DNA of 55,868 bases from a virus (lineage: Duplodnaviria > Caudoviricetes): IMG/VR virus record IMGVR_UViG_3300009081_000016, positions 1 to 55,868 of that record, one strand, 5' to 3'. Each line of letters opens with the position of its first letter. Within the stretch, counting starts at the first letter, position 1. The translations under genes were made by a program, and so were the position numbers. This document shows positions 15,681 through 55,868 of this stretch, one piece after another. The notes beneath the pieces are model-generated. The model saw nothing but the letters and a program-made list of their open reading frames with translations, did not search any database and was not told the DNA's origin.

Positions 15681-15683
15681 GAG

Positions 15684-26105: not shown

Positions 26106-26107
26106 AG

Positions 26108-26133
26108 AAAAAGAAGTCCCCTGTTGGGGGACT
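26108..26133 (-). terminator. Intrinsic terminator at the end of the late operon
   Basis: agtcccc-caaca-ggggact followed by tcttttt. Confidence 0.7.
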
Positions 26134-26517: not shown

Positions 26518-26654
26518 GGTTTTAGCCTATTTTAGGGGGGGTTTTCACTTAGTGAAACGTTCGAAGATTAAAAACGAGTCAGACGACTAAAAACAGCTGC
26601 GTTGGGGCCTTAAACGGTGCCCAAAAAGTTTATACCCTGCTTTGTTTCAAAAAA

Positions 26655-37159: not shown

Positions 37160-37196
37160 GACGAGCCTCGATTGTTAGGTGTACGTTGTGGGGTGG

Positions 37197-37736: not shown

Positions 37737-37749
37737 CTTTCTTTGTTCC

Positions 37750-38142: not shown

Positions 38143-38144
38143 AA

Positions 38145-38708: not shown

Positions 38709-39076
38709 TGTGCGCTGTTTACATCCCGTAGAACCAATGTCTGCATTGAAACAGAATTGGTGAGTGCGTTTGCTTTTGACCGTTCAATAACTGCATATTC
38801 CCCAATAAGAACGGAGGAACTGCGATTGTAGACACGCAAATGGTCTCCGATGTCTATGGAGAGGGAACCATCAGCCATCAGGACTAAATCACCCTGATCC
38901 CCCACCGAAAAACCTGCTTTAAACAAGTTCCGCTCTGAGCGTCTCCCCAAGTAATATATTGGGAAAGTGGCCCACGTATAGGAACTGGTTCCCGAAGTTC
39001 CCAAGACCTTTGTGGCCAAACAGAATTTACTGTCGGCTGTAATAGATAGAAGAGTCACGCAGCCTCTGCTTTCCAT
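38705..39076 (-). CDS. Head closure protein (putative)
   Basis: IDIGDHL...EYAVI; position in the neck module. Confidence 0.55.
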   Translation of the reverse strand: MESRGCVTLLSITADSKFCLATKVLGTSGTSSYTWATFPIYYLGRRSERNLFKAGFSVGDQGDLVLMADGSLSIDIGDHLRVYNRSSSVLIGEYAVIERSKANALTNSVSMQTLVLRDVNSAQ

Positions 39077-39960
39077 TTGGTATCGAAGGGGAAGGTGTCT
39101 GAATCAAATTTTGATTCCCCGATTTCCTGTTTATTTGCCAATTCCACAATGAAAGGCAATTCAACGTGCAAACAATTTGGGTGTAATGGACAACCCTCAT
39201 TGGGAAGTATACTGAGCGGGGGATAGACCCCATCACTTTTACCGATGCAGAAAACTTTTCCTTCGAGAGGAGCACAAATATCGCACTTGCTCCCGTGAAG
39301 GCTAATCATAACGTATTCAATCCCGTTGCTGACCAATCGAGTTTCAGTTCCTCGAGAATGGGCAACTCTCATCTGAGTACGGGCCAGCAACTCTGCATAG
39401 GTATTAAGTTTTAAATTCTTCTCCCCAACTTTTATCCAACCGCCAACAGCCCTTGCGGCCAACCGTTCCTCTATTCTGGAACTGACCAACGTTCTCGATT
39501 CTCCCAGCGTAATTCCCTGAGCGATTTCTCGGAGCACCGCTCGCTTCTCGGGAGTCGCTTGCTTCATTCGAGATACAAAATTCAGGAGCGACCCCTCGTA
39601 TAGCCGAATCCCTTCATTTATGTTTCTTCTCATCGCGTCAACCACAACAGCTATAGCTCCAGCATGCGGCTGAACAAACAACGAGGAAACAGGGGTAATA
39701 CCCAACAGGCGTAAACGTTCCTCCGCAAAGGTAGCACCCCGTTGAAACATTGGGGGGATCTCATAATTCATCCAGCGCTCCCCTTCCCGTTGGATGGCGC
39801 GCAACTCATCCCGAAAGTGTTTTGCCATCAACGTAAGACGACCAACGTCTTCTATGGGAGCGTTGCGCAGCTGATTTCTGATGTCAAGCAATACCCGTTC
39901 GTAGTAGGAAGCGAACAGACGAGACTTGACTATCACATACTCTGAATCGTAGCTAACCAC
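39055..39960 (-). CDS. Minor capsid / head morphogenesis protein (MuF/SPP1 gp7-like)
   Basis: YAELLART, HGSKCDICAPLEGKVF, PLHPNCLH. Confidence 0.85.
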   Translation of the reverse strand: MVSYDSEYVIVKSRLFASYYERVLLDIRNQLRNAPIEDVGRLTLMAKHFRDELRAIQREGERWMNYEIPPMFQRGATFAEERLRLLGITPVSSLFVQPHAGAIAVVVDAMRRNINEGIRLYEGSLLNFVSRMKQATPEKRAVLREIAQGITLGESRTLVSSRIEERLAARAVGGWIKVGEKNLKLNTYAELLARTQMRVAHSRGTETRLVSNGIEYVMISLHGSKCDICAPLEGKVFCIGKSDGVYPPLSILPNEGCPLHPNCLHVELPFIVELANKQEIGESKFDSDTFPFDTKWKAEAA

Positions 39961-40501
39961 GATCGGCTCGCGCTCCGCGCAGCAACCATTTCGAAATAAC
40001 CATCATAACCTGAGGCGCAATATCTGACATCGCGGAGACGCGACCGCCGTATTGTTCGCTCATTCCGGGCATCGAAATCCCTGATACGCCCTCGTTCTGT
40101 AACCGAACTCGCGGAGAAGCTTCCCCCAAAGTATCGTTTCCCAGGATATAGTTAGCTTGCTCCAAACAAGCCTCCCGAATTTCCTTTGGGATTATCAGAA
40201 CGCTCGAATCGTCGTAGCTATACGGAAGAGCGTTGTCTCCACTCCAACTATCGGTTCGGGGGAATTGTAATGGCTGATAAGCAGCGTTCCCTTCCGCGTA
40301 ATTGGCATACTTCTCCCCTCTCCAACGTAGCCTGTCAAGCTGCCGCGTTGCTTCGATGAGCGCTGCTCTCTTCTTGTCCGCATCCGTGGTGGCTGTCCAA
40401 GCACTGTCCGGTCGGGAAGCAAAGTAGGCAGTTGCCTCCGTTTCCCCAACGTAACTGTTTGCGTTGTTGGCACCTGCGGTTGCTACAATGGTTAGACTCA
40501 C
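39953..40501 (-). CDS. Head-tail adaptor (DnaT-like N-terminus)
   Basis: ANSYV...A.AYF..R..W, AALIEATRQLD, QPLQFPR, IPKEIREAC. Confidence 0.8.
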   Translation of the reverse strand: MSLTIVATAGANNANSYVGETEATAYFASRPDSAWTATTDADKKRAALIEATRQLDRLRWRGEKYANYAEGNAAYQPLQFPRTDSWSGDNALPYSYDDSSVLIIPKEIREACLEQANYILGNDTLGEASPRVRLQNEGVSGISMPGMSEQYGGRVSAMSDIAPQVMMVISKWLLRGARADRG

Positions 40502-40902
40502 TCTTCCTCCTCCCCAACGGGTTTTATGTTCAATTCAGCCCAACGAGCCTTCTCCGTACGGTACGCCAGGAGTTGCTCGGCATCCTTTATAGTAAAGTTC
40601 TCGTATCCTGCTGTACTCTCTGCAACAGCCAACCACTCTTGAACGTTTTCGGGTTGATCTTCTTCATCCGCCGCATACATAGAAATCAGTCTCTCATAGG
40701 GTTCATACTCCGGAAATTCGACCAGAACCGGAAGTACGTTGGCTAACTCTCCCGCGTTGCCGCTCTCCAATTGTCCGCCCGTGTTCAATATGGCGGCAAT
40801 CATCTCCTGATTTTCGGGGACGTTTGCTATCCGATGCGTTTTCCCAGAGGCGGGAATCCGGATAACTACATAGTCCTGCTTTGAACTTCTTTTCTTGGTC
40901 AC
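40498..40902 (-). CDS. Hypothetical protein (head module)
   Basis: GTG-start ORF coupled to the adaptor. Confidence 0.65.
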   Translation of the reverse strand: MTKKRSSKQDYVVIRIPASGKTHRIANVPENQEMIAAILNTGGQLESGNAGELANVLPVLVEFPEYEPYERLISMYAADEEDQPENVQEWLAVAESTAGYENFTIKDAEQLLAYRTEKARWAELNIKPVGEEEE

Positions 40903-40911
40903 GGTTTTAAT

Positions 40912-42018
40912 TCATCGGTATAACCGATGTTCTCCGAGTTTGGTTCGTGAAGACACCGACAAGAATTGTTTCAGCACCTCTTCCACAGAAATTTCGTGCA
41001 TACAGACACTGGCAACATCCTCCATGTTCATTTGATTGCAATAGAAGTTTCTACTCTTCAATAAATAACAAGGGCGTTTACAACGATCCGGACGAAGCAG
41101 TTGAATCGCGTGACCGTCATGATAATGTTTCTCCAACAACGTTTTACCATTCGTTTCACCATATAGACCAAAAGTCGTAACACCCAAGCCAGCGGCCATG
41201 TAGGTCAAACCAGAGTCCACACCTATAAAGGCATCCAAATGCGCGAGGTGAGCTACCGCTACTTCGAGTGGCACATTACTAATTCCGGGTATACCATCTA
41301 ATATTTCCTTTGCATCGAAGGTAACTACAAAATAACCTGCTCTCTGAAGTGCCTTGGCCAATTGAAACCACCGATGATAACTCCAGTCTCTCCACCGTTC
41401 GGTAGATCGGAGACCAATCCCAACAACCTTTCTACCAGAAGGGAAAGGATTATCGATGGGGTGGGTTAAAACAATTTCGGGGCAGCGGACAGGAACGTTT
41501 AGTTCCATATCTCGATAGAAGGTTTCAACACGAGACAATTCCACGCTTCCGGGAGTTGTTTTTAAAGTCGCATGTTTTCCCTGTTCGTATTCCATACAAG
41601 GACATAAAAGGTCGTGGTATTCGTGTACAAGACTAAGACGATCTGCCAAGTGTATGAGAATGTGCCCATGAGACGATAAATATTCATCTCCGTCTAACAG
41701 TTCTACATTCAGAGTGGATAAATGCTCAAGAAAAATTCGGTGGGCAGTGAGTACGCACACAGTGACAGGAGCATAAAATCCGTAGAGGGAGCGCCACTCA
41801 AGAATCTTGTCTTCGACCGCTGGCAACATATGGATGATGTCGCCAATCCCTCCCCCGCACCGTTCTATCCACAGTCTTTTTGGGGGTGGAGCATCATTGT
41901 TGTACAAATGACGATCCGAAACCAATATCGTAAACTCTTTTCGGAGATGCGGAAACATTGACTCCCAGTTTTCAGGAAGCCACAATCTCCGACCGGAGGG
42001 ATTCATTACCATTGTCAT
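40912..42018 (-). CDS. GT9 (heptosyltransferase-like, GT-B) glycosyltransferase
   Basis: GGIGDIIHMLP, RDWSYHRWFQLA, FIGVDSGLTYMAAGLG.TTFGLYG; AGGGAG before ATG 42018. Confidence 0.88.
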   Translation of the reverse strand: MTMVMNPSGRRLWLPENWESMFPHLRKEFTILVSDRHLYNNDAPPPKRLWIERCGGGIGDIIHMLPAVEDKILEWRSLYGFYAPVTVCVLTAHRIFLEHLSTLNVELLDGDEYLSSHGHILIHLADRLSLVHEYHDLLCPCMEYEQGKHATLKTTPGSVELSRVETFYRDMELNVPVRCPEIVLTHPIDNPFPSGRKVVGIGLRSTERWRDWSYHRWFQLAKALQRAGYFVVTFDAKEILDGIPGISNVPLEVAVAHLAHLDAFIGVDSGLTYMAAGLGVTTFGLYGETNGKTLLEKHYHDGHAIQLLRPDRCKRPCYLLKSRNFYCNQMNMEDVASVCMHEISVEEVLKQFLSVSSRTKLGEHRLYR

Positions 42019-42087
42019 CTTTATTCTCCCTAACGAGCGGGGGGAGGGGAAACATCCCGGGAGAATGATCCCCTCCCCCAAACGGAG

Positions 42088-43002
42088 TTAGCTCAGCAGC
42101 GCCGAACGGAAGTCCACCAAGCATTCCGGGCGCATCGTCTTGACGCCAAACAAAATGTCCAGCGTGATCTGATAGCCCAAAACGTTGATGTTGTAACCGT
42201 AGAGAATCCGCAGAACGATGTTTTCAAACATCGTGTAGTATGCGGCAACTCCGGTCTTCGGATCCGGCAACGGCAGAGGCCGCGTGGCCAACGTAATGGC
42301 CGCCGGATGGAACATAAGGTTGTGCAGAATTCCGGGAGATCCCGCTTCTTCCGCAATTCTCGGATCCTCGTAGCAACCGAAGCCATGGATTCTTCCCATC
42401 AGTCCTTCCGGAATGGTGGAATAACCCAGCTTGGAGGCTTCCGTGAATCGCTCGATCTGCAGAAGCTTCTCGAAATCCTGACACACGAAAACACGCCCCG
42501 TCTTCGGAATCTGAGAAGTATTCAACTTCCGACGTCCCGACAAGACGTTCGCTTCCGTAATGTTCGTGGAGCCGTTCCCCACAACGTGGGTCGCATACGC
42601 CCACTGGGCAGCGATAACAGCCTCCACGGCAGTGACCAGGGCAACGGCCGATTCTCGGATATAACCGTCCATAACGGCGACATTGGATTGCGCTGCAAGA
42701 ATGTCTTCCACGATGAAGGAGGATTCTTTGTGGTATGCCAGCGAGACATCCACCTTATCCCCTTCGGTATTCTGCAGCGTTACCGTCTTGCCGACTTCCT
42801 TGTCATTGGCGGTCATCGTACCGAATTTCGGCACATGAATGGTTGCGCCCTTGGTCTGAATCTCGTCCTCGTAATCACGATTTACCAACCGGACCAACGC
42901 TGCGGCGTCAAAGAACGAGGCAATAGCCCGCGACGCCCAAAGTTCCGGGATGAAGTCTTCGTGATTTGAAGAGTTGATCGTAGTCGTTGCAGTTCCAGCC
43001 AA
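42088..43002 (-). CDS. Major capsid protein (HK97 fold, P22-coat-like)
   Basis: FIPELWA, VNRDYE.EI..KG.TIHVP, DILFGVK; follows scaffold; TTG start with AAGGAG. Confidence 0.9.
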   Translation of the reverse strand: MAGTATTTINSSNHEDFIPELWASRAIASFFDAAALVRLVNRDYEDEIQTKGATIHVPKFGTMTANDKEVGKTVTLQNTEGDKVDVSLAYHKESSFIVEDILAAQSNVAVMDGYIRESAVALVTAVEAVIAAQWAYATHVVGNGSTNITEANVLSGRRKLNTSQIPKTGRVFVCQDFEKLLQIERFTEASKLGYSTIPEGLMGRIHGFGCYEDPRIAEEAGSPGILHNLMFHPAAITLATRPLPLPDPKTGVAAYYTMFENIVLRILYGYNINVLGYQITLDILFGVKTMRPECLVDFRSALLS

Positions 43003-43078
43003 AGTACTTTACTCCTTGTGATAGTTTGGGTAACCAAAAACAGTTAGGCCCAAACCCACGGAGGTGTGTTCCCAAGCG

Positions 43079-43834
43079 CTACTTCTTGGCGCCTCTCTGG
43101 ATCAACACACTGATCTGATCCCAGTTCTTCCTTACAAAGGCAGGATCGGCCAATTGCTCTCGAGTAATCGTGCTCCCATCACCGAGAGAACCGCTCTGAA
43201 AATTGCCACCTTGTCCGGGGACAACCATCCCGCGAACGAGATTTGGGTTTTCAGTTAGGTACGTCTTGACCCCGTCTTCTACGGAAACTGGAACGGCGAC
43301 CCCATCCTTTCCCTTTCCCGGCATGGTCAGCTTGAACTGCGGGGGTTTTCCTTCCTCCGTAATCTCTTCGATCTGAATCGTATCGAAAAGCAAGGTGACC
43401 ACCTGCTCGGGACGATAGGCATCGTTCTTTATCGCCGCGTCACTCAACGCACGGCGAATAGTTTCGGAATTGTGGAGACCCTTCCACCGTTCGGCTTCCT
43501 TCTTTGCGGAGCCAAGAGCAACGTTATGTTGCTCTTTCAGAGTCAACAAGGCACGCTGGTGTTTTTCCTCCACCGACATCCCCTGTTCCTCCAACTCGCG
43601 GAGCCGTGTCTTAGCCTTCTCCAATTCCTCAGTCGTGAGTTTGGTTTTTGTACCCTCATTGGTCAACTGACCAAGGGTATTTTTAAGTTGCTGTTGGAGT
43701 TCAGTTACCTTCTGATCTCGCGTTTGGGCTCCCTTTCCGTAGGCCTCGTCATACAACTTCTGTTGGTCGGGTGTAAGATCCTTCCAGTTGTCCGGACGGA
43801 GTTCTTCAGGGAGTTTAATTTTGTCCTCAGCCAT
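43079..43834 (-). CDS. Capsid scaffolding protein
   Basis: Coiled coil, ENPNLV..PGQGG; directly upstream of MCP; GAGG before ATG 43834. Confidence 0.8.
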   Translation of the reverse strand: MAEDKIKLPEELRPDNWKDLTPDQQKLYDEAYGKGAQTRDQKVTELQQQLKNTLGQLTNEGTKTKLTTEELEKAKTRLRELEEQGMSVEEKHQRALLTLKEQHNVALGSAKKEAERWKGLHNSETIRRALSDAAIKNDAYRPEQVVTLLFDTIQIEEITEEGKPPQFKLTMPGKGKDGVAVPVSVEDGVKTYLTENPNLVRGMVVPGQGGNFQSGSLGDGSTITREQLADPAFVRKNWDQISVLIQRGAKK

Positions 43835-43910
43835 CTTGCTATCCTCAAGATGTGTTAATTGTTTCACTCCGACGATAGCTGTCCTCTATCGCAGAGACTA
43901 CCGCGATCCG

Positions 43911-44204
43911 TCACGAAATGGGAACGTAGTCGGGGACGACTGCCTTGGCCGCCTCGATCAGTTCATCCAGAACCTTGTCGTCCCACTCGGACGGAGACGC
44001 CACAATGGCCGCACGAAGTTCTTTCTCGAAGTCCAGAATTGTACGGCACGTCGACTTCAGAATCTTATCGCCGAGTTCTCCGTCCACGAGGGACTTCTCA
44101 ACCGCAACGATCACCTTGTCCAACTGCCCCACGACGAGTTCGAGCAGGGCATTTCCCTTCTCCTTCGAGAAAAGGGTAGTCAGTACGTTCTTCAGAATTT
44201 CCAT
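43911..44204 (-). CDS. Small helical protein (holin-like WDDK motif, uncertain)
   Basis: AAGGAG RBS; SPSEWDDKVLDEL. Confidence 0.6.
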   Translation of the reverse strand: MEILKNVLTTLFSKEKGNALLELVVGQLDKVIVAVEKSLVDGELGDKILKSTCRTILDFEKELRAAIVASPSEWDDKVLDELIEAAKAVVPDYVPIS

Positions 44205-44272
44205 GACAGTTCTCCTTGGTTTGGGCCTATCCGCAGCATAAACACTGATGCTGCGTTCTTACTCAGCTATTC

Positions 44273-46726
44273 CTATCTCTTCTGAATTATATAGCCCTGC
44301 ATGTAGATGCGCGGTCTTTTTGCTTCTACGCCTTCACTTGAATTGAAATACACATATCGGGTTGCGGCTGGATACTCTGGGGAAAGTACGGCAAGACCAA
44401 AGTTCTTCGTAGAGTCCGCTACCATTTCGTTAATCGCATATCCTAATCCTCCAAACCATACCACTCCTGTATCTGACGCGCTTATAACCTGTGTTCCATA
44501 ATTCTGTGATCCATAACGAGGATCACACCATACATCATTAGGGGCATCATACCCTGTCCAGTTCCAACACACCTCGGTTGCAGTGGCGACATTGGACGTT
44601 CCGTATCCATCTCCCTCTTTCCATAAACAGTTTGTGACATGAACTTCGATGAGGGGCGTCCCGACCACCTTGAAAATATAGCCACCAAACTTTGCATCAT
44701 TGATAACAATTCCTCGGTTATGCAACAGTGCAAAACTATTATAGAAAAATCCTATGTACTGTGCGGGGCCAGTTGTTGAGTACCCAACAGTAATTGAATC
44801 CCTCGCCCCCCATTCAGAGGTAGGGGCAGAGGATGCAATGTGGGCATCCTCCGAGAAATACATCGTCGTGTCCCAGTAGACACGCTGAGAGTCAGAGTGT
44901 AGGGCAACTATGTAGTAACCCGAATATGATAAACTTGGCCAGTTAGCCAGTTGAACATTCTGCCGTGAGCTAAATGCCGCGCTCCGATTAGACGTAGAAT
45001 CCGACTTCTTAATAATAAGGCCGAAATTTGTGAGGGGGTCATTTACAAGCGATTGCACCAAGGACGTAATTGTCCATGAGTACCGATTGGTATCATTTGC
45101 AATTGCAACTGTATCATTTGCGTTCCCACTACACATCGTATTCATTGGGCGATCCCACAAACTATGACCGCGATCTATGGTGTCTCCAGTCACGGACAAT
45201 GAATCAAATTTTGACCATCCTCTCCAGTCCCAGCAAGCCCCAGCAGTATCAATAGCTCCCATTTGGGTGCCCTCCACCCAATCTGATGCTGCCTTAAACA
45301 CGCTCACGTTGGTAGGATCTGTTACGGATACAGCACTTGCACCAAATAAACCCTCTGTAATAACGATACAACAGTCTTCATAAGCCAATGGGAAATATAC
45401 CTGACTCTGCATAGTATCAGAGTTAACACCCGCATAGAGAGCAGTGCTGATACCATAATTACGAGTAGTGTAATTCTTGCTAATGTGGGCATCAGCCGTA
45501 GGTGAAGCCGTTGCAGCAAAGGGGATAAACTTTACGCTGTCTGACAACTCTACCGTGAAGGGTGCAGAAGTATCGCACAAGAAATGATGGGCAGCACTCA
45601 TGAGCCGAATACGAGCACTATCTGCACTCACCGAGGGTTTCCACAGATACACCCCGTTATTCGGAGTGCTCTGCGTGATGAGTTCCCAATTCCCCGATGG
45701 GTAATTCCGATCCCACTCGATACGCACATGACCCGCAAAATTAGCTGTACTCCACTTGATCGTGTCCTCGTTGGCAACGTAGATTGTTGCACCACTACCA
45801 GGTTTCGTAAGTGCAAACAACGTGGAAGGATGAATTCCAACCAATGCCCGATTTAATTCTGGAATGGAGTCGGCGGGAAGGTTGTTAACATACCACCATC
45901 CCGTCCGATCCGCATGATTTATCTCTAACCCATAATTAAAATGTAGTTGGTTTCTACCGTTATAGACTCGCCAACCATCACATACTACTGCATGGTCGTT
46001 AATACGATATAGTATGGGACGACCCAAATTAAGCTGCGCTTGCAATATTTCAAACCAAGCGGTTGAGTCATAATCACTGCGTAGTAAACGACGTGCTCCG
46101 CTTGCATAGCCAAAATGTCTGTTAATTACTTTCCCCGCCAAACTATCCCACATCGCCCCTGCGTAGGAGGACGACCTTATGGTGCCATAGTCCATTTCTA
46201 TGGCTACGCCAATTTCGTAACACAACTCTGCAACGGCGGCTCTCTGGTCAGCGGAGGCTATGGCTGTTAAATCGCCTGTTCCCCATATGTTGTATCTTCC
46301 GAGTATCTCCTCCCAATCATACTCATCCGAGAAGGTTGCTGATAAGTTCTGTCCCTCAGTCTCACCCGCACCCGTACTATCCCCATCCCAAGCGTAGGTA
46401 TGCGATCCAAAACCACTGGCAGGATATTGCCAATACTCCATAATCATCCCAAGTGCTGTGGCTACACAACCCGCTCTACAGCGTGTGCCACCAACCCCCG
46501 TCGGACAATCCTCGTTCCACGGTGAATATTGATCCCAATATATGTCCCCTAATAACGGTTTAACTTGACTCTTAACTGGAGCCGGTTCTGGATCGGAAAT
46601 GATATTACCCGCTGTTCGCTTCGTTGGGTTTTCGCCCCACCGAATTCGCGCCCAATCCCAATCAGTGTCTTGAGCAAAAGACACCGACTGAAAAAGAACA
46701 AAGAGAAGTAAAAATACTCTAATCAT
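44273..46726 (-). CDS. Secreted peptidase C10 (streptopain/SpeB-like) with Ig-like and two DNRLRE-like domains
   Basis: Signal peptide (MIRVFLLL...VSFA-Q); WDQYSPWN, AGCVATA (Cys), AELCYEIGVAIEMDYG, HAVVCDG (His), HFNYG; DAHI...NYG/EWG...F.S.(Q/E)...P repeated twice. Confidence 0.88.
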   Translation of the reverse strand: MIRVFLLLFVLFQSVSFAQDTDWDWARIRWGENPTKRTAGNIISDPEPAPVKSQVKPLLGDIYWDQYSPWNEDCPTGVGGTRCRAGCVATALGMIMEYWQYPASGFGSHTYAWDGDSTGAGETEGQNLSATFSDEYDWEEILGRYNIWGTGDLTAIASADQRAAVAELCYEIGVAIEMDYGTIRSSSYAGAMWDSLAGKVINRHFGYASGARRLLRSDYDSTAWFEILQAQLNLGRPILYRINDHAVVCDGWRVYNGRNQLHFNYGLEINHADRTGWWYVNNLPADSIPELNRALVGIHPSTLFALTKPGSGATIYVANEDTIKWSTANFAGHVRIEWDRNYPSGNWELITQSTPNNGVYLWKPSVSADSARIRLMSAAHHFLCDTSAPFTVELSDSVKFIPFAATASPTADAHISKNYTTRNYGISTALYAGVNSDTMQSQVYFPLAYEDCCIVITEGLFGASAVSVTDPTNVSVFKAASDWVEGTQMGAIDTAGACWDWRGWSKFDSLSVTGDTIDRGHSLWDRPMNTMCSGNANDTVAIANDTNRYSWTITSLVQSLVNDPLTNFGLIIKKSDSTSNRSAAFSSRQNVQLANWPSLSYSGYYIVALHSDSQRVYWDTTMYFSEDAHIASSAPTSEWGARDSITVGYSTTGPAQYIGFFYNSFALLHNRGIVINDAKFGGYIFKVVGTPLIEVHVTNCLWKEGDGYGTSNVATATEVCWNWTGYDAPNDVWCDPRYGSQNYGTQVISASDTGVVWFGGLGYAINEMVADSTKNFGLAVLSPEYPAATRYVYFNSSEGVEAKRPRIYMQGYIIQKR

Positions 46727-47190
46727 TGAACTGCTCCAGTATGCACTTCAAACTTAGGAGGATTACTAATCGGAGCTACCCACAGACAGTCTGCACGAAA
46801 CGGTACCCAAAAGGACGTACCGGGTGCCATAGTAATTGGTGACCCGCAGGAAGGGACGAGTCGAATCATGTAGGTAGAAGTGGTATCGGTGTTTCTCATA
46901 ACAAACCCCGACTGGGTTCCGGTGTTGGAATTCGATAACTTCATTCCCCTTCCCTCTTCGGGGATTCCCATCAAGGTATCAACTTTCATGGAATCAAATA
47001 CCGCACCCGTAAGCCCAAGAGGGCGGTATCTGTTTGCTACTTTATCCAACCCGTATTGAACGGAAACAGGATTTCCGTTGTCATCAATGGGCGTTATCGC
47101 TCCGGTGTTGCTGGGTTGCGCTATGGCATTCGACAAGCCGAAAACAACCAGAAACACAACCATAATGCGGAAAATGATTTGGGTTCTCAT
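46723..47190 (-). CDS. Signal-peptide-bearing hypothetical protein
   Basis: MRTQIIFRIMVVFLVVFGLSNAIA-Q. Confidence 0.7.
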   Translation of the reverse strand: MRTQIIFRIMVVFLVVFGLSNAIAQPSNTGAITPIDDNGNPVSVQYGLDKVANRYRPLGLTGAVFDSMKVDTLMGIPEEGRGMKLSNSNTGTQSGFVMRNTDTTSTYMIRLVPSCGSPITMAPGTSFWVPFRADCLWVAPISNPPKFEVHTGAVQ

Positions 47191-47196
47191 TTTGTT

Positions 47197-48657
47197 CTAC
47201 TCCTCGGGAGTTGAGTGAGGGGGTGGCAAAACAATGGATAACTCAGGGAGAGACTTTATCTCTTCCCCAATAGTTTTCATATCAGAAGTGGACGCATCAG
47301 GGAGCGCACGTCCGGCTATCTTCATCTTTGTTAGGTAAGAGAAGTGCGAACCTAAACGTAATTCCTCCAAAGACATTGCGTCAGCCAACTCAGCGGAAAA
47401 ACTTCGAGGATCAAATTCTTTGGGGTATTGCGCTTTCCATAAACCCTCCCCCGACTTTACCCCCATAAATTTGGATACCGAAGCGGAGAGATTCATTTCC
47501 CCCTCTTCCATGAGAGAAGCAGCGCTGGATAACGCAGCATTTGTGTCCTCGAAATCTATTTCCTTCCCTAATGCGGTGGCGTACACTTCATTAGGATTTG
47601 CGCCGCGAGAGGGGAGAGTGGCCATACGATACATTTCCTGTATCCCAACATGGATCCATTCCATGATCAGTTTGGCCTGAGAAGCATCCGGGGAGATGTA
47701 CTGAGGAGGAAACGGTGTATTCTTTGGATACGTCCATATCTTCGACACCCCCATGATCTGGTTGTTTACTTCGGTTTCCTCCGCTCCAACCACCAATTGG
47801 GAGAAGGTTTGTTCGTACATAATGGTATCCACCAGAGAACACCAATTGTATACCGAACGAGCTAAGATGGAGATGTCCGATATAAGACTGGGGGGTTCCT
47901 CACCACCCAAGGCTCTCCCGTGAGAAAATTCCACATAGGGCACAACACCCCAAGTATTTTCGCCTTCCTCTACCAAAATTAGCGGTTCTTCCTCGCTTTT
48001 GTTCTTGTCACGTCGGAATATGCTAAAGGAATCTCGAGTCCAGAGCTGATACCGAGTCTCCGATTTCCTTTCAATGTTGGGATTTTTATCGTCGCTCCAT
48101 TCATAGGAAAAGAATACCCAGTTGAATTCGCTGTTTCGATCCCGCGACCAGTCCAAAAGCTGGGTAGGCTTGATAAGGGTGAGCCGAGGGAGAAGAGAGT
48201 TGGATACCACCCCCGTAATTATTTTAGGTTCATTTCCGCCCTCGGGACCCCGTATAAGAACACCGACGCGGCCAAAAACACGGGTTAGAGAAGCAATTCG
48301 AGACATGAATACGGCCAGATCAGTCCCTTCGCCATCACAGTTTTTAGCGAAGGAAGAATAACGTTCTTCCTGAGCAGAGTCGACTGCAGTGCGCAGGAGA
48401 GCACGTCCATTTGTGTACTTGGTGTAGGTCTCGACTATGGCCTTAACAAAGTTGAGATAGTACGAACGCTTCCGCCGTGATTCATAGTCGGATGACGATT
48501 CGAATCGGTGGTTAAACAGCATCAACTCTCCTCCTCTGGAAATGGAGGAACCACCGATTTTAGTAGCAGTATATTTATCCCCACCGTCGTAGGCCAGTTC
48601 ATAGAACTGCCATTGGTTATAATTTGCGGTGAAGTTTGGGTGCTTGCGTATCTTCAT
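47197..48657 (-). CDS. Portal protein
   Basis: 486 aa right after TerL; RFES..DY..R..RSYYLNFVK, WGVVP, YISPD. Confidence 0.9.
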   Translation of the reverse strand: MKIRKHPNFTANYNQWQFYELAYDGGDKYTATKIGGSSISRGGELMLFNHRFESSSDYESRRKRSYYLNFVKAIVETYTKYTNGRALLRTAVDSAQEERYSSFAKNCDGEGTDLAVFMSRIASLTRVFGRVGVLIRGPEGGNEPKIITGVVSNSLLPRLTLIKPTQLLDWSRDRNSEFNWVFFSYEWSDDKNPNIERKSETRYQLWTRDSFSIFRRDKNKSEEEPLILVEEGENTWGVVPYVEFSHGRALGGEEPPSLISDISILARSVYNWCSLVDTIMYEQTFSQLVVGAEETEVNNQIMGVSKIWTYPKNTPFPPQYISPDASQAKLIMEWIHVGIQEMYRMATLPSRGANPNEVYATALGKEIDFEDTNAALSSAASLMEEGEMNLSASVSKFMGVKSGEGLWKAQYPKEFDPRSFSAELADAMSLEELRLGSHFSYLTKMKIAGRALPDASTSDMKTIGEEIKSLPELSIVLPPPHSTPEE

Positions 48658-48658
48658 C

Positions 48659-50233
48659 CTACCATCCCACTTGTTTGAAAGGTTTCTTCTTCCGCAATTG
48701 CCAGGCTATGGCCAAAGCGAGAACCAAATCATCATTACTACCCGACTGGGCTTCTACCTTCCCACTTGGTTTCTCTACGAAGGTCAAACATTCCCGCAAC
48801 TGTATCACGTCATGAATAGTAACATAACCATTTAATATCGCATCGGCAAGATCGTCCAACATAATAGGACGACTCTTTCCATCCGTTGACCAACCAGGAC
48901 GAGTTTCGTTCTTTCGGGCAATTTCATCGTAGGAAGTGTAATGATAGATATAACGCTGTGGAACGTGCTCCGCTTCCATCAGAGCGAGAAGCACAGCATG
49001 ACCGTGATTATTGCGCTCTATTCCCCAAAGAACATCCCCGTATATATGAATAGAATGGGCGATCTGACGCGCAAACATCCGAGGGCCAAAACGGCTGTGA
49101 ATTACGGCAACCTCTTCACCTGTCTCCTTATCAAGAATTGCCCCAGCATCGTAATCCCCACCGGATATTCCTTCCGCCGTATCGCCGCCACCAACGTATG
49201 ATCTTCCGGGAACGGGTAATGTATAAACTCTCCAACCTAAAGGTATAGCCGTCCCGTTGGACCAATGCTTCAGTGGCTGCTTCTTCTCAGTAGAATCCAA
49301 TCGTGCCTGAATTCGCCTAACATCGAAGAAGGGTCTCCCGCTGTGAAGAAAGGCTTCCACATCGTCAACCGGAAATTCCTGCGGAAACTTCGCGCGACTC
49401 GTAGACATCGCGGCCCTCTTAACGCGACGCCACTTAATTTGCTCCAGGGTCAGATTGTACTTCTTTATCAGAGCCTTTTCTTCCCGCGTAAGATAATCCG
49501 GACTTTCTGGGTCCAACAACCTTTCTTTTTCCCCCTTCAACAACGGAAGACTGCACTTTGAATCGCCATACCAAGGAAAGAAATGAGGTTTGTATCCTCC
49601 CAATCCAGTTGCTGCTTCTCTCCATCGCGCGAAGAAGTCGTTGTATCCATTAGCCGTTGTTTCGATGGAGATCTCTCCCGTCAACATAGGAACGCACGGC
49701 TCCAACGCTGCCCACGAATCGGTGGGCAACGGCCAATAGGCATACTCTGAACAGTGAAGAAAGTGAACCACTCCGCTTCGACCCAAGCTCTGTGCTTCTG
49801 TAATGTTTTTTCCTGCCGTCGTTATACTAACCCGACTGTTCAATTCAGGAAAAGTCAGTTCCGTTCTGTTGTTCAGTCCAACTTTAGGTCGTAGTTCGTT
49901 GGGTATCGAGTGGAACATAATCTTTAAGTGCTCAAACAAACCATTTGCACTTTCGCCTTCGTGCGTTACAATTAAAGCAACATACCCCTCTCGCGTACAC
50001 ACCCGAGCGAGCGCCTGTCCTAATTTCAGAGAGGAAAACCCCTGACGACGAGCCTTCAATATCAGATCGCGCTTGGTTCTGTTTTCCCAATAAAGTTCCT
50101 GTACGTTGTTGAAAAGAAACGGAACCATACCCCCGGATTCAGACCGAATGTCAAGAAGCGTCTCGATAAAATACCGCTCGTCCTGAAACAGGCTATCTGT
50201 CAAGTCATAATTACTTTTTGGAAAGGCAACCAT
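48659..50233 (-). CDS. terL: Terminase large subunit
   Basis: ILKARRQGFS, LHCSEYAYW, IETTANG, GGDTAEG..DY, IERNNHG, DDLVLALAIA; start reassigned to ATG 50233 (TAATG). Confidence 0.96.
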   Translation of the reverse strand: MVAFPKSNYDLTDSLFQDERYFIETLLDIRSESGGMVPFLFNNVQELYWENRTKRDLILKARRQGFSSLKLGQALARVCTREGYVALIVTHEGESANGLFEHLKIMFHSIPNELRPKVGLNNRTELTFPELNSRVSITTAGKNITEAQSLGRSGVVHFLHCSEYAYWPLPTDSWAALEPCVPMLTGEISIETTANGYNDFFARWREAATGLGGYKPHFFPWYGDSKCSLPLLKGEKERLLDPESPDYLTREEKALIKKYNLTLEQIKWRRVKRAAMSTSRAKFPQEFPVDDVEAFLHSGRPFFDVRRIQARLDSTEKKQPLKHWSNGTAIPLGWRVYTLPVPGRSYVGGGDTAEGISGGDYDAGAILDKETGEEVAVIHSRFGPRMFARQIAHSIHIYGDVLWGIERNNHGHAVLLALMEAEHVPQRYIYHYTSYDEIARKNETRPGWSTDGKSRPIMLDDLADAILNGYVTIHDVIQLRECLTFVEKPSGKVEAQSGSNDDLVLALAIAWQLRKKKPFKQVGW

Positions 50234-50601
50234 TATTTTACTTTGCTGTCTATGGACTTGACTTTTTCCAGAACCAAAGTAACGTTGGTTTCTGTTCGGT
50301 TGTGACAACCACGTGCTTCTGTCGTCCACCCACTAAATTCGGAATGCATGGCCGCTGTCTCGAAATGTAATCGTTCGAGGGTAGCGATCTGCTGCCGCAT
50401 AAGATTCACTTGTTCTTCGGACGTCTTTTGAAAGGCCTCAACCAGAGTCTGAGCTACGACATTGGCATCATTTGTTTTTCGGTTCACGAGAGGCCTGACG
50501 ACCCAGGCGAAGATACCAAATACGACAAAGGTAGCAAATACTACTATCACACCTCCTTCAAGAAGGCGTTGAATAATGGTGGGTTCAAGCACTGGTTCCA
50601 T
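50233..50601 (-). CDS. Membrane-anchored coiled-coil protein (holin-like)
   Basis: One N-terminal TM (GGVIVVFATFVVFGIFAWVV) then coiled coil. Confidence 0.6.
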   Translation of the reverse strand: MEPVLEPTIIQRLLEGGVIVVFATFVVFGIFAWVVRPLVNRKTNDANVVAQTLVEAFQKTSEEQVNLMRQQIATLERLHFETAAMHSEFSGWTTEARGCHNRTETNVTLVLEKVKSIDSKVK

Positions 50602-50625
50602 GGAATAAATCCCTGTTAAATTTTT

Positions 50626-50698
50626 TCGCGGAGCGGGGGACGAGGCCCAAGGAGAACCGTGACCTTACTCCCACCCACAAGACTCCCCCACCCCGCGA
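50626..50698 (-). ncRNA. Structured intergenic RNA with exposed anti-RBS sequence
   Basis: 15-bp stem tcgcggggtggggga/tcccccgctccgcga with two G-U pairs on the minus strand; inner ggag-taaggtcacggtt-ctcc. Confidence 0.55.
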
Positions 50699-50707
50699 TG
50701 AATCAAA

Positions 50708-50992
50708 TTACTTCTTCGGAGGTTTGGGCTTCCCGCCTCCGCTACCTTTCTTACCGCCACCGCATCGGGCCATCTTCTGGATCACCTCCTCCCGAATATA
50801 GGGGATACTATAACACGGCATGTATACCGTATCTCGAGGTTCACCACAAACGAAGATAACAACAGGTTCCCACCGAATCGAATCTCCCAGAGTAACCAAT
50901 TCCGTACTGTCGTTAACGGTAACTTGCCCGGCACGCAACGTTATCGACATCAACAAAAACGGAATAACTTTAAAGAGTAGGCGGAGGCCCAT
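50708..50992 (-). CDS. Small signal-peptide protein; contains in-frame 21-aa mini-ORF (50708..50773) with its own strong RBS
   Basis: AAGGAG before ATG 50992; GGAGGTGA before ATG 50773 (MARCGGGKKGSGGGKPKPPKK). Confidence 0.55.
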   Translation of the reverse strand: MGLRLLFKVIPFLLMSITLRAGQVTVNDSTELVTLGDSIRWEPVVIFVCGEPRDTVYMPCYSIPYIREEVIQKMARCGGGKKGSGGGKPKPPKK

Positions 50993-51713
50993 CGAACCTG
51001 CTCCTTCCTTCGGTGCTCTGTCCCTGCACATGAATGAGACGTATCGAACAACAGAAGTTTTTCCTCCCAAGTCTCTCGGCCTCCGCGCAAATCCAACGAT
51101 CGCTGGCCATATATGGATGGCCTATCTTCATGTACCCGATCTGTTCCAGAAGGTCCTTCGAGTAAAAGTGAAACGCCCCAGTGTTCCATTCCACACTTCT
51201 CATTTCCGGAAACTGATCTGTCCATCGCTCACACTGGTTCAGATGATTCGAATGGCCGATTCCCCCTGCGTGATCGATCAGTGCATCGTCTCCGGTCAAG
51301 ACCGCTCCCATTACTCCGATAAGGGGTTCGTTCTCCCGATAGCAACGAAGTGCTCGGGCCATCCAACCTTCCTGAACGTCGCCGTAACAATCGGGATTCA
51401 TTCCTATGATGTAAGGACCCCCCGCCAAGGTGAGACCCCCGTTCATAGAATTTCCGTACCCGTCCGTTCCTTCTACTGGAACCCAAAACAGGTTCCGATC
51501 GTTCCAGACCATTGTTACTGGCGCAACATTGGAGGAAAATTCGCCCAACAAAATGTTCATAGCACCCACATGATTGGGCGAACTGTGATTGTCTACAACA
51601 ACCAAGTCGAAGTTGGTGTGACCACCATTCTTCAACCCTCTAAGAAACCGAGGAAGAACGTGACTGGAGTTGTGGGTGAGAGTTACAACCGTTATGTGCA
51701 AGGGATCTGTCAT
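50970..51713 (-). CDS. GT2 glycosyltransferase
   Basis: VVTLTHN, VVVDNHS, MNGG, MNPD, DRWIC; ATGA-coupled start 51713. Confidence 0.9.
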   Translation of the reverse strand: MTDPLHITVVTLTHNSSHVLPRFLRGLKNGGHTNFDLVVVDNHSSPNHVGAMNILLGEFSSNVAPVTMVWNDRNLFWVPVEGTDGYGNSMNGGLTLAGGPYIIGMNPDCYGDVQEGWMARALRCYRENEPLIGVMGAVLTGDDALIDHAGGIGHSNHLNQCERWTDQFPEMRSVEWNTGAFHFYSKDLLEQIGYMKIGHPYMASDRWICAEAERLGRKNFCCSIRLIHVQGQSTEGRSRFDGPPPTL

Positions 51714-52495
51714 AGTTTTACGGCCCTTTCGCAGTGACGACAAATTACCAAGCCACCATACAAACACGCTTGTCTCACCGCATTCTTGATGGGGCCTTCG
51801 TATATTTCAGAATAGGTCTGGGAAAATAGATTTCCCAGAACGTGTCTCCGGCCGTAATCCATACAGCATAGAATAACGTCGCCGTTGGGCAAAAGAACGT
51901 TTTGGTCGAAGCGTAAAGAGGCGTAGGAACAACGGATTCCCCCCTCCCGAAGAGTTACTGGCAACAGGGGATTGGTTCCCGCTCGTGAGATCATACTGTC
52001 TTCGATCCAACGATCTTCCGGATACGAATTGAGGAGCCGCTCTCGGATTCGCAGGTTAGGTTGTCCAACGCTCACATAATAGGTTGGGGTAAGCCTCGTT
52101 CCCTTCCGAAAGAGTTCGTTTAAATCCAACCAACGTTGCTCATCGTAAACAAAGGTCGTTCCACCAGGAACATGGACTACGATTTCCCGGAATTCCAGAT
52201 CCCGAAGCATCATTACGTCCCGCTCTCGTAGACCAACCAACGTGGTATACAGAACCATCGTTCGACGCTGCTGCCCTGTGTGAACCATCATGTCGGCCGC
52301 TTCGGGATTCAGAAAGGGTTCGCACATCCCCGAAAAGTCAATCTGAACATCCGGAGGAACTTTGTCTAAGGCCGCAACAAAGTTTTCAAGAGAAAGAACT
52401 CTTTCCCCTTCGTAGTTCAACATCAGCTGCTCCTGCGGGCAATAGGAGCAACCATTGGAGCAGCCAATTTGCGTGGTTATCTCTAAGGTTCTCAT
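51710..52495 (-). CDS. Radical SAM protein with SPASM/twitch domain
   Basis: CSNGCSYC, FSGMCEPFLNP, LPNGDVILCCMD, ICRHC. Confidence 0.9.
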   Translation of the reverse strand: MRTLEITTQIGCSNGCSYCPQEQLMLNYEGERVLSLENFVAALDKVPPDVQIDFSGMCEPFLNPEAADMMVHTGQQRRTMVLYTTLVGLRERDVMMLRDLEFREIVVHVPGGTTFVYDEQRWLDLNELFRKGTRLTPTYYVSVGQPNLRIRERLLNSYPEDRWIEDSMISRAGTNPLLPVTLREGGIRCSYASLRFDQNVLLPNGDVILCCMDYGRRHVLGNLFSQTYSEIYEGPIKNAVRQACLYGGLVICRHCERAVKL

Positions 52496-53232
52496 AGTGG
52501 CCTCTTAGGAAACGCCCGAATACGCTCTTCGCTCTTCTGGAGATGGTGATAATCGGATCCCCAATCATAGGCATCATATACATATGTTACATTGGGGTTA
52601 AACACCACCTCTTCTGGTTCACACTGCTCAGCCATTTCATACATCGTAGCCTGATCTTCCGCCAGGAAGGTGAAAGTCTCCGGTCGCATATTCTGCCATA
52701 GCCCATAACGGAACGTCCGCATGTGCGACATAAGCCAAGGGTGCTTCCGGTAGTCTCGCGTCTCCTTCACTTCGATAGAGTAGGCCGCGCAATGACCAAC
52801 ACGGTCAGTTCCATGAAATCGATACTGACCGTATATGATCTTGGCTTGTGGCAGCGCCTTATACAGATCAGCGTACAGATCCACCACTTGCGGATGGGCC
52901 AGATAGTCGTCTCCGTCCAAATTAAGAATCACGGTATTCGGATGGATCTGATAACACGCAAACGCACGTTGTCGGTTTGCATGCAGCAACATCGTACGGG
53001 ATTCGTTCCGTAACAGAGTAAACGGAACCCGATCTTGATTAGCGATAAGGTCACGGGCCTTCTGATACGTTTCGTCCGTAGAGCAGTCGTCCGTTAGCAG
53101 AAGGGTGAAGTCTTGGTTGGTCTGCTCAAAAACGGAGTTTAGACACCGCTCTATTTTATCCGCAAAGTTCCATGCCACGATGGAAATGATGAACGGAGTT
53201 TTAATCAGTGCAGCTTCGGCTCTCATGTCCAC
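52492..53232 (-). CDS. GT2 glycosyltransferase
   Basis: CLNSVFEQT, TDDCSTD, LDGDD, SHMRTF, ED. Confidence 0.92.
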   Translation of the reverse strand: MDMRAEAALIKTPFIISIVAWNFADKIERCLNSVFEQTNQDFTLLLTDDCSTDETYQKARDLIANQDRVPFTLLRNESRTMLLHANRQRAFACYQIHPNTVILNLDGDDYLAHPQVVDLYADLYKALPQAKIIYGQYRFHGTDRVGHCAAYSIEVKETRDYRKHPWLMSHMRTFRYGLWQNMRPETFTFLAEDQATMYEMAEQCEPEEVVFNPNVTYVYDAYDWGSDYHHLQKSEERIRAFPKRPL

Positions 53233-53858
53233 AACTCCCGAACCTTCACCAAGACTTTGTCCACTATACCGATCTTGGGTTGGTTCAAGTCGCAGAATTT
53301 ACGAGCGAAGTGATAGTCCGGAGTATCCCCCCCACCGAACATGATCTGATGTTTCTGGATCAGTGGCCAGCGAAACAGACCATTCGGTGTTCCAAAGTCA
53401 CAACGAGTTGGGATCGTATCGAGATTTCGGGGCACGGCTTCGCCGTTCAGCAGCATGCGACTGACAACCAGATCGAAATCTTCCTCCACTGCCTTGGCCA
53501 CCATTTCCGAGATCCAACTTGGTGCGTAGCCATCATCATCGTCGGCGAATGCAACGTAATCTATCTGAGGCTTGAACATCGAAACCTGAAACATCATTTC
53601 ATTTCGGACAAAGGATCCAGTGTCACGATGCGGTCCGGAATCGAACTGGAACAGGTTAAAAGTACCCGCCTTTCTTCCCTCTCTGGAGTTGATCAAATCC
53701 GCAAGTAGCATCTTCTTCTCCGTCGAGAGTGTCCCGTCTTCCCCCAAAAAGAGATGCAAGAGGGGATAATCCTGCTTTACCAGTTGCAGAAGAGAACCAC
53801 GACTCTCTTCCGGTGGCCGGATCGTGGGTACCAAAACCGCAACTCGGGGGGTGTTCAT
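53223..53858 (-). CDS. GT2 glycosyltransferase
   Basis: VAVLVPT, GEDG, VRN, YVAFADDDD, PDY; ATGA-coupled start 53858. Confidence 0.88.
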   Translation of the reverse strand: MNTPRVAVLVPTIRPPEESRGSLLQLVKQDYPLLHLFLGEDGTLSTEKKMLLADLINSREGRKAGTFNLFQFDSGPHRDTGSFVRNEMMFQVSMFKPQIDYVAFADDDDGYAPSWISEMVAKAVEEDFDLVVSRMLLNGEAVPRNLDTIPTRCDFGTPNGLFRWPLIQKHQIMFGGGDTPDYHFARKFCDLNQPKIGIVDKVLVKVRELWT

Positions 53859-54400
53859 ATTGCGGCTCCTTCCTCCCGGCAGTATGGAACAGGGGGTTCC
53901 AGTCCCTGTACCCAAAGCGCTCCGTTCTCGATCTCCGTATTATCCGGGAGAAGGGCCAGCGTGTTCTGGAACGCCTCGAACAGCGAAGAACCTGAGCCAC
54001 CGTAATGGCGGTATTCCCGGACAACGGAATCTCCCGACTTAACGTCTTGGAGCAAATTTAGGTGCACTTCGTATCGTTCCGTCTCATTTCCCGGCTCAAT
54101 CACGAACTGGGTGGGGACTTGTTTCTTGATCAGCTCTTCGATGATCACTCTCCAATCCCCATCGGTTCGGAGAGCGTCCAGTTCCTCTCGCCAGTCTTCG
54201 GAAGGCTTGGGGATCTGGAGATTGTTGAGGGTAGCCCATTCCTCGAGAGCAGCGAGAAGAGGACAGCAGTCGCGGGAACTACCAACGGTGATGGATTTCT
54301 CCCGAGTGGTTAGCCAAGCCACTAATCCCAGCAGTGCTCCGTACAGCATTCTGTCCACGGGCGGACTGAGTTCGGTGTTCTGTTCTTTAGACATGGTCAC
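53855..54400 (-). CDS. Hypothetical protein
   Basis: AAGGA before GTG/ATG; coupled to GT2. Confidence 0.65.
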   Translation of the reverse strand: MTMSKEQNTELSPPVDRMLYGALLGLVAWLTTREKSITVGSSRDCCPLLAALEEWATLNNLQIPKPSEDWREELDALRTDGDWRVIIEELIKKQVPTQFVIEPGNETERYEVHLNLLQDVKSGDSVVREYRHYGGSGSSLFEAFQNTLALLPDNTEIENGALWVQGLEPPVPYCREEGAAI

Positions 54401-54408
54401 GGTTTTCC

Positions 54409-55143
54409 TTAGTTAGGACTCGGTAGTGGGATAACGGCATAGTCTTCTTCGGCGTTCTGAATTTCCGGCCGGGACGTTTCGGATATGATGTTTGCATCGG
54501 TAGTCAGTCCTCGTTCCATTCGGCGCTTCTTGATCAGTTCGTCGAAAGAGTGATGTACTTCGGTTTTCTCGATGAAGGTTCCGGCCTCCTGCCCGATCTG
54601 TTTGAGAAGATTGGCAGCAGTCTGTATGTCTTTCTCGACTACGATGTGATGATTCCGGGTCTGTTGGAGACGTCCGTGTTTGTTGTATTTTGGCTGCCCA
54701 TGCTCATCGAGGAGCGTTTCCATCCATTCCAGAACCTTGGTAGGAGTCGGCGTAATCTCGCCGTAAAGTTTAATGAGCTCTTCGATGCGGACTCGGGCGT
54801 GAGCAAGGGGGATGCTTTCCAAATCTCGTACGAAAATTTTGCGGTGCTCGACGTATTGCTGCCATAGTTCTTTCCAGAATTGCTCTTTTCGCTGAAGCTT
54901 CATTCCAGGATCAGCGGATAGCTTGGCTAACCAGCGAGCAATCTTGTCGTAGGAGTTCGGATGAAGGGGAAAGTGGAACTGATTCTCGAAAAGCTGAAGC
55001 GTTTCGTTCTTGGGTCGGAAGGTGGACATGCAAAGAACGACGAAGAGATAGTGCCGGAAGGAGAGTTTCTTCTGGGGTACTTCGGTATTAGGAGAGAAAT
55101 TTGCGTAATTCGTTTGAGGGGGGAAGGGCCCCATTAGCGCCAT
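54409..55143 (-). CDS. Putative terminase small subunit (DUF2280-like)
   Basis: HRKIF..LESIPLAHARVRIEEL...AANLLKQIGQEAGTF; first gene of the late operon; start reassigned from 55506 to about 55143. Confidence 0.6.
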   Translation of the reverse strand: MALMGPFPPQTNYANFSPNTEVPQKKLSFRHYLFVVLCMSTFRPKNETLQLFENQFHFPLHPNSYDKIARWLAKLSADPGMKLQRKEQFWKELWQQYVEHRKIFVRDLESIPLAHARVRIEELIKLYGEITPTPTKVLEWMETLLDEHGQPKYNKHGRLQQTRNHHIVVEKDIQTAANLLKQIGQEAGTFIEKTEVHHSFDELIKKRRMERGLTTDANIISETSRPEIQNAEEDYAVIPLPSPN

Positions 55144-55285
55144 AGTCGCTTTTTTTCCCGAGTCTTCCTGAACGTTCACACCAAACGAGAATGATGGCGC
55201 ATTGCCAGGCAGAGGAGCAGAATGAACATTGCTGGTAGAGCACTTAGAGCCTGATAGACGAGGTGAGCCATCCCCATACGTGCTG

Positions 55286-55411
55286 TAACTCTCCCCACTA
55301 ACTCTCCCACTCTCTCTTACTCTACCTAACTCTTCTACTCTACCTCTCTTTCCTGCTTGCGAAGCAAGCTCTACCTCTACTCTACTCTCCTTCACCTTAC
55401 CCTTCTTCTTA
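55286..55411. repeat. Pyrimidine-rich ACTCT repeat tracts flanking a small palindrome
   Basis: Eight ACTCT copies; G-free 55286-55354 and 55369-55411; gcttgc-gaa-gcaagc at 55355-55369. Confidence 0.75.
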
Positions 55412-55745
55412 GGTAGATACTTGATACGCTCAGTCTCGCTACTCGCAGAATGGCGTATCGCTCTCCTATCATCCAGTATCACTTGCTTACCAACAACGAT
55501 TCGCATAACAGGTTAGCCTCCGGCAGTCGGGTTTACACTTACTTATGTCACTTCCCACCCACTCGCGCGCAGAAGTAACTTAAAGTAACTTGACGCCACA
55601 TAACGTGGCGTATGCTCATAGTATAGGGGGGTACCAACGACCTAACTTACCTAATACCCATGAAAACAAACGCAATCAGCAGACCAACAACAAAACTAAG
55701 AAAACCGGAAAGGCAACGATCAGATGCGTTAAATGCTGACATAAA

Positions 55746-55868
55746 ACCTCCGGAATATCCCCCCTTCTCCCGGTAAAGGGTAAAACAGGGGGTAGAAACG
55801 GTGCTCAAAACCCCTAAAATAACGTACCGCAGCGGCCCCAGAGGGGGTTTTCACAGTAAAATTAGGGG
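55746..55868. repeat. Terminal direct repeat, right copy
   Basis: Identical to 1-123. Confidence 0.97.

Follow-up and report, generated by a model that had tools for sequence, protein, structure and literature searches.

An RNA hairpin exists at positions 50626-50698 of the viral DNA studied here, where the first-pass annotation of this sequence had placed a 15-bp stem carrying a candidate antisense loop, and the fold is confirmed for the minus strand. We consider it to be, with a probability of roughly one half, a cis-acting intercistronic element for processing, stability or attenuation of the transcript. The annotation's own interpretation, in which the hairpin loop acts as an antisense RNA on the starts of several late genes, is partly supported; it is plausible but unproven.

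Genome setting and structure of the hairpin

The window, by which we mean the whole stretch of DNA analyzed, is the complete virus record IMGVR_UViG_3300009081_000016 (55,868 nt, with a 123-nt direct terminal repeat). By codon score, coding-like ORFs lie on the minus strand without exception, so transcription is taken to run from high to low coordinates. Gene identities come from family scans in which 63 proteins were compared with Pfam, and the resulting gene order is given in Table 1 together with the features of the hairpin and its proposed pairing sites. A glycosyltransferase/radical-SAM block (55.5-50.7 kb) meets a packaging/structural block (50.6-26.7 kb) at the hairpin. No small terminase was recognized in the family scans.

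Table 1. Positions of genes, hairpin parts and sites complementary to the hairpin
Feature	Position	Strand	Remarks
Three glycosyltransferase-family ORFs and a radical-SAM/SPASM ORF	53915-50970	-	Family scans
Small ORF	50708-50992	-	5' of the hairpin; probable start M27 of a 120-aa frame; stop TAA 50710-50708
Compound RNA hairpin	50626-50698	-	26 pairs in the MFE structure, 6 of them G.U; minus-strand specific
5' arm of the 15-bp lower stem	50684-50698	-	Folding
Open 13-nt apical loop UAAGGUCACGGUU	50655-50667	-	Only accessible part of the proposed seed; opening cost 1.4 kcal/mol
CUCCU, anti-SD-like pentamer	50650-50654	-	Paired with GGGAG 50668-50672; unpaired probability ~0
3' arm of the 15-bp lower stem	50626-50640	-	Followed by AAAAAUUU, without U tract
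First ORF of the packaging/structural block, 122 aa	50233-50601	-	Hydrophobic N-terminal stretch, read from sequence
TerL	48659-50329	-	After ORF 50233-50601; family scans
Portal	47197-48657	-	After TerL; family scans
Peptidase_C10-domain protein, then scaffold	Between portal and capsid gene	-	Family scans
Major capsid protein	42088-43002	-	Family scans; followed by a GT9-like ORF, then head-tail adaptor and tail genes
Tape measure	32938-36393	-	Family scans
Control region, 450 nt	21666-22119	-	After the replication genes; followed by small genes with a common strong RBS
tRNA and 300-nt non-coding region, then nucleotide-metabolism, DNA-polymerase and DNA-modification genes		-	Low-coordinate end of the gene order
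SD and start (GTG 54400 or ATG 54394) of ORF 53855-54400	54395-54410	-	15/16 complementary, 10 nt of them to the loop
Internal, non-start site in glycosyltransferase ORF 52492-53232	53046-53056	-	11 nt complementary to the loop; net -12.3 kcal/mol
RBS of ORF 43911-44204	44209-44219	-	Match of 11 nt, most of it to paired positions of the hairpin
GTG start region of ORF 40498-40902	40897-40906	-	10 nt complementary to the loop; net -10.8 kcal/mol
ATG and first codons of ORF 36716-37159	37139-37160	-	20/22 complementary, 13 exact

The hairpin begins 9 nt past the TAA of ORF 50708-50992 and ends 24 nt ahead of ATG 50601, within an intergenic gap of 106 nt; minus-strand ORFs that cross it (50585-50680) have a codon score of -0.130 per codon. 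Its lower stem consists of 15 consecutive pairs, 13 Watson-Crick and two G.U, and is continued by a helix formed by 50641-50646 and 50673-50679. The 121-nt context folds at -44.9 kcal/mol on the minus strand (z -2.42, with 4 of 200 shuffles equally stable) and at -29.6 kcal/mol on the plus strand (z -1.04, 26 of 200 shuffles), and because of the six G.U pairs the structure is favorable only as minus-strand RNA. Among all 80-nt minus-strand windows it ranks third in stability (-41.2, compared with a mean of -17.7 and sd of 5.0). Its gap also has the highest folding energy per nucleotide of the 17 intergenic gaps folded, from a set of 19 gaps of at least 25 nt with two long ones left out. At most positions of the apical loop the unpaired probability is at least 0.7. 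The anti-SD seed proposed in the first-pass annotation survives in part: its non-SD portion is exposed, whereas the CUCCU core is paired. On the 5' arm, four G-runs (50670-50694, minus strand; GGGG U GGGGG AGUCUUGU GGG U GGG) fit a G-quadruplex motif, which would compete with the stem.

Several other features of the genome were recorded. It encodes a 5-hmdU DNA kinase domain (11952-13109), a thymidylate-synthase-like ORF (14304-15488), a UDG-PolA fusion (9271-11694), radical-SAM/SPASM ORFs at 3810-4730 and 51710-52495, several GT2 ORFs and the GT9-like ORF after the capsid gene; a match at 5627-6565 to a TET-associated glycosyltransferase-like family is weak and below the Pfam cut-off. Together, the genes at 3810-15488 and 50970-53915 suggest that the DNA is hypermodified, that virion proteins are glycosylated, or both. 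In the head module, the ORF at 44273-46726 (817 aa) has a streptopain-like Peptidase_C10 domain (E 7e-42) and weakly matches CBM96. ARAGORN calls a tRNA-Glu(UUC) at 15683-15778 on the minus strand, which at 96 nt is unusually long, and an intron, a long arm or a miscall are possible. The terminal repeat (1-123 = 55746-55868) lies inside the largest non-coding region (55809-55868 plus 1-226); the ends of the record may be real, a random assembly break there being unusual. The control region (21666-22119, 454 nt) contains several G6/C6 hairpins, some with U tracts, and a repeated TTGC(G/T)TAACTTA, and probably holds promoters, terminators or an origin. Another sequence, GTGAAAACCCCC, is found at 98-109 (= 55843-55854) and 26537-26548 (minus strand), which places it in both of the large non-coding gaps ahead of gene blocks and makes it a candidate for a promoter or a regulatory motif.

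Judged by sequence comparison, the phage is an orphan in the collections searched, from which records close to its own genome may be absent. A blastn search of 48659-51100 at a distant setting gave no match in phage records, and a portal search found no relative in genome contigs or viral contigs. With TerL, one locus was detected in viral contigs (33% identity), in which an ORF abuts TerL without a comparable gap, and three loci were detected in metagenome contigs (26-29% identity). The exact 22-nt loop pattern has 0 matches in viral contigs. Parts of the window are contained in 12 public runs, two of them RNA libraries, from freshwater sediment, soil and wetland samples. When four runs were compared with 36000-55868, contigs were at least 99% alike, with no differences or joints at the hairpin or the target sites among the pieces listed. 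Contigs of one RNA library (X11) have depth in bin 50586-51248 and none in 47934-50585 among the pieces listed; these contigs resolve neither strand nor transcript ends and may include DNA carry-over. In a soil run of DNA contigs (X4), the match ends at 38982 and 42475 and continues into 255 letters unlike the window, which hints at a mosaic relative that has only a ~3.5-kb connector-to-capsid segment in common.

A probable cis-acting role between cistrons

The preferred reading rests on anatomy. RNA polymerase would read through the hairpin within a long minus-strand transcript, since the structural genes have no sigma-70-like promoter near the junction: none was detected on the minus strand between 52573 and 46345, including 50700-50850. 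A late-promoter search likewise found no motif common to the hairpin gap and other intergenic gaps. The interrupted helix of ~26 bp, about two and a half turns, would then act at the RNA level. Conceivable functions are RNase III-type processing, a block to 3' exonucleases on which the stability of the preceding message would depend, and partial, weak attenuation. The matches of the loop to three gene starts would be a by-product, due either to chance inflated by selection or to short sequences common to boundaries between cistrons.

RNase III sites of this kind comprise about two turns of double-stranded RNA in an intercistronic position, in many cases interrupted by an internal loop, and the hairpin presents 26 pairs in three segments between the stop at 50708 and ATG 50601. 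A review (PMC3867540) describes how RNase III acts on five processing signals in the polycistronic early precursor of phage T7, and how processed 3' ends act as stability determinants. As in T7, a long interrupted helix (~26 bp, with internal loops) lies in an intercistronic gap of a transcript made from one strand, and after cleavage it could remain as a 3'-end stability determinant of the upstream message (PMC3867540). Unlike that of the T7 hairpins, its cleavage is hypothetical. We know of no T7 processing site with a loop complementary to gene starts.

A second minus-strand hairpin (42040-42079; 80-nt window, -41.3) begins 8 nt after the TAA of the capsid gene and ends 21 nt before ATG 42018. 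Its stem is formed by a G-run and a C-run, it has no U tract, and its layout is that of the hairpin at 50.6 kb; the two are the top-ranked coding-strand structures outside the tRNA region. Because of the identical layout, the missing U tract and the lack of a separating promoter, both may be read as intercistronic punctuation. Sequence kinship between them was considered and rejected, as several coding windows align with a score just as high (30). The position of the second hairpin also implies that the GT9-like ORF starts at 42018, not at TTG 42081.

Complementarity of the loop to gene starts

The four complementarities quoted in the first-pass annotation (15/16, 13 exact or 17 with G.U, 11 nt and 10 nt) were all recovered, and its remark that the match extends beyond a generic SD holds as well, the loop being complementary to three cistron starts through its non-SD part. 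Complementarity between loop and start covers 10, 10 and 9-13 nt at 54400, 40902 and 37159, respectively. Once the costs of opening are included, the predicted net energies range from -10.6 to -12.5 kcal/mol, the latter for loop-only pairing at the start of ORF 53855-54400. ORF 40498-40902 starts 9 nt after the upstream TGA. The third target, ORF 36716-37159, belongs to a pair of ORFs that precedes the tape measure gene. Its 13 exact positions (37145-37157) extend to 17 nt with one G.U at a net -11.3 kcal/mol, and the repeat search reports 37139-37160 and 50648-50669 as an inverted repeat (22 nt, 91%), among the highest-identity of 25 listed inverted pairs. Synonymous-codon choice in its first codons is unremarkable. 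A local hairpin of 7 bp encloses both this site and the AUG, and opening the site costs 8.8 kcal/mol. The match at 44209-44219 has an opening cost of 7.3 kcal/mol because the anti-SD pentamer is sequestered, and a net energy of -7.0 kcal/mol. Gene starts account for three of the four most favorable loop duplexes, which counts against a purely cis-acting element; the best duplex energy of all sites, -19.2 kcal/mol, belongs to the internal site in a glycosyltransferase ORF (53044-53073), whose 53046-53056 match the first-pass annotation had not listed.

The annotation had proposed enrichment of the motif at gene starts as a test, and such enrichment was found. On the coding strand, AACCGTGAC has three copies, all three at cistron starts (54400, 40902 and 37159), and its single inverted copy in the genome is the hairpin loop. 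It is the only 9-mer present in at least three start regions besides the RBS family CTTAGGAGGA and ATGAAGATA. With start regions defined as -25..+15 around 68 starts (4.9% of the genome), three of the four loop sites of at least 9 nt fall in start regions. Only 36 of 55,855 genomic 13-mers, in eight clusters, have at least three start-region matches. Four of these clusters are CCTCCTAA-type anti-SD strings and the loop is among the other four; one of the three other non-CCTCCTAA-type clusters complements an ATG start. None of 20,000 shuffled loops reached at least three start regions, so that complementarity to three starts is rarer than the cis-acting reading predicts. When start regions are narrowed to -20..+12, the exact loop scores 2. 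For 22-nt queries and 10-nt matches, at least three start-region matches were obtained with the hairpin, 46762-46774 and 15545-15558 (clustered) and also with the isolated queries 37309 and 12034. Matching of the loop to starts thus exceeds chance within this genome, for a pattern that was chosen after the whole genome had been read, in a scan of very many windows, and with two of the three target starts being GTG codons inside the motif by the longest-ORF rule, both at most 9 nt from an upstream stop.

These within-genome statistics favor an antisense role over pure chance. The co-transcribed hairpin, either released or within the transcript, would use its loop GGUCACGGUU to kiss the starts of 53855-54400, 40498-40902 and 36716-37159 and so lower or tune initiation; the SD-complementary part would pair only after the upper helix opens. 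We regard this role, which resembles that of c4 RNA and is compatible with punctuation, as rather unlikely. In addition to the statistics, the 22-nt inverted repeat, the net pairing energies and the open loop argue for it, as does a separate non-coding region of the genome that exposes an 11-12-nt complement to the RBS common to five genes. Several results argue against it: the hairpin has no promoter, U-tract terminator or Rfam match, the best loop site is intragenic, the 37159 site must be opened, narrower start regions leave two matches, two targets depend on GTG starts within the motif, the pattern was picked post hoc, and the targets have no evident functional coherence.

In c4 RNA, a loop pairs with the ribosome-binding region of the target, and the hairpin loop is similarly complementary to ribosome-binding regions of targets on its own strand. 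Rfam at gathering score gave nothing relevant to the hairpin across the whole window. At E up to 10, the segment 50300-51000 gave no match to C4, the family that we take to represent the c4 antisense RNA of P1/P7, and the sole match there (50956-50983) is unrelated. According to PMC8198154, which cites Citron and Schuster 1990, c4 RNA shares its operon with icd and ant, and ant is fully repressed only when c4 is present; this provides a precedent for an RNA encoded in the operon of its targets. The hairpin differs from c4, which has one target, in that three to four targets are proposed, up to 13.5 kb away and on both sides, and in having no Rfam match. Trans-acting sRNAs with anti-SD seeds, including sRNAs derived from 3'UTRs, form a known class. 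Like them, the hairpin has an exposed seed complementary to initiation regions and lies directly 3' of a coding sequence; unlike them, it lacks a promoter and a terminator tail, its SD part is paired, and its exposed seed is non-SD. It thus has neither the promoter nor the terminator of its own that a free-standing sRNA gene would possess. A literature search for phage-encoded small RNAs with anti-Shine-Dalgarno sequences led to a match that concerned Caulobacter and an element of another kind.

The two roles could be joined. The hairpin would then be punctuation and, at the same time, a co-transcribed antisense regulator with a loop that recognizes a non-SD start motif, AACCGUGAC[C], and tunes three to four cistrons of a ~29-kb unit. 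Such an element would apply the c4 principle to several targets from within an operon, beside a second, SD-directed non-coding RNA for early genes. We consider this combination rather unlikely.

The non-coding region that follows the tRNA (15452-15690, minus strand) exposes GUCCUCCUAAGG at 15536-15547, ahead of a small hairpin and a canonical U-tract terminator (15461-15512). Five genes, with starts at 21295, 20276, 19359, 17970 and 16711, have the CCTTAGGAGGA RBS to which GUCCUCCUAAGG is complementary. The region resembles a free-standing sRNA more closely than the hairpin at 50.6 kb does. The first-pass annotation had taken the latter for a late-operon counterpart of the early anti-SD RNA. 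At the level of sequence this relationship did not hold up: the two architectures differ, and the alignment between them is equalled by 276 of 2000 shuffles, so that homology is not above background. At 19424-19453 (minus strand), a terminator-like hairpin (AAAGAGGUG / CACCUCUUU, then CUUCU) carries a 7-nt loop, CCGUGAC, that is complementary to the loop at 50.6 kb; loop-loop pairing spans 8 nt with a net energy of -10.2 kcal/mol.

Other explanations and biological meaning

The hairpin could also terminate transcription conditionally between a middle (modification) unit and the late structural unit, until an antiterminator or some other factor overrides it. Its position at a module boundary just after a stop codon, its very stable G/C stem and the absence of a promoter-like site for the structural genes downstream are consistent with such a function, and a G/C-rich hairpin directly past a stop codon is also what an intrinsic terminator would present. 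However, it is a 73-nt compound hairpin with a 13-nt loop, its 3' flank is AAAAAAUUU / AAAAAUUUAAC in place of a U tract, and it is not among the 18 terminator-like sites that the terminator scan called in the genome. Other parts of the genome do contain canonical U-tract hairpins with G/C stems (21.7-22.1 kb, 15461-15512, 26106-26130 and 19424-19453), which makes the absence of a U tract here meaningful. No antiterminator-like protein was detected among the 63 proteins scanned against Pfam, and we consider conditional termination improbable.

More improbable still is an element that acts as DNA, such as a terminase or packaging site, a protein-binding site or a G-quadruplex motif. The hairpin lies ~300 nt upstream of TerL in a genome with no small terminase recognized in the family scans, and its 5' arm contains a direct repeat of G-runs (GGGTGGGGGAGT / GGGTGGGAGT; four G-runs). 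Against this, the six G.U pairs favor minus-strand RNA only, and the 123-nt terminal repeat in the largest non-coding region would fit genome ends located there, not at 50.6 kb.

The alternative named in the first-pass annotation, that a genuine plus-strand gene of 66 aa (50659-50859) has its RBS and GTG start in the motif, is hardly credible: although AAGGAG is followed after 4 nt by GTG and the region is 15/16 identical to the start region of ORF 53855-54400, the ORF scores -0.109 bits/codon, compared with +0.161 (sd 0.075) for 65 called minus-strand ORFs, and is shadow-like, on the low side of 113 plus-strand shadow ORFs (mean -0.033, sd 0.077), it is antisense to minus-strand ORF 50708-50992, which itself scores +0.159, all coding-scoring ORFs lie on the minus strand, and no plus-strand promoter-like site is found just upstream, the nearest being at 50183-50211.

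The most likely reading is an ordinary intercistronic hairpin by which the mRNA would be processed or stabilized where two modules meet. In this form the finding would mainly help to map transcription in an orphan phage of sediment, soil and wetland samples. To our knowledge, the phage RNA regulators described to date mostly have one target each. If pairing between the loop and the gene starts has a function, several late cistrons of a dsDNA phage would have their relative translation set by an element embedded in their own transcript, and the start codons would carry a private, non-SD address tag.
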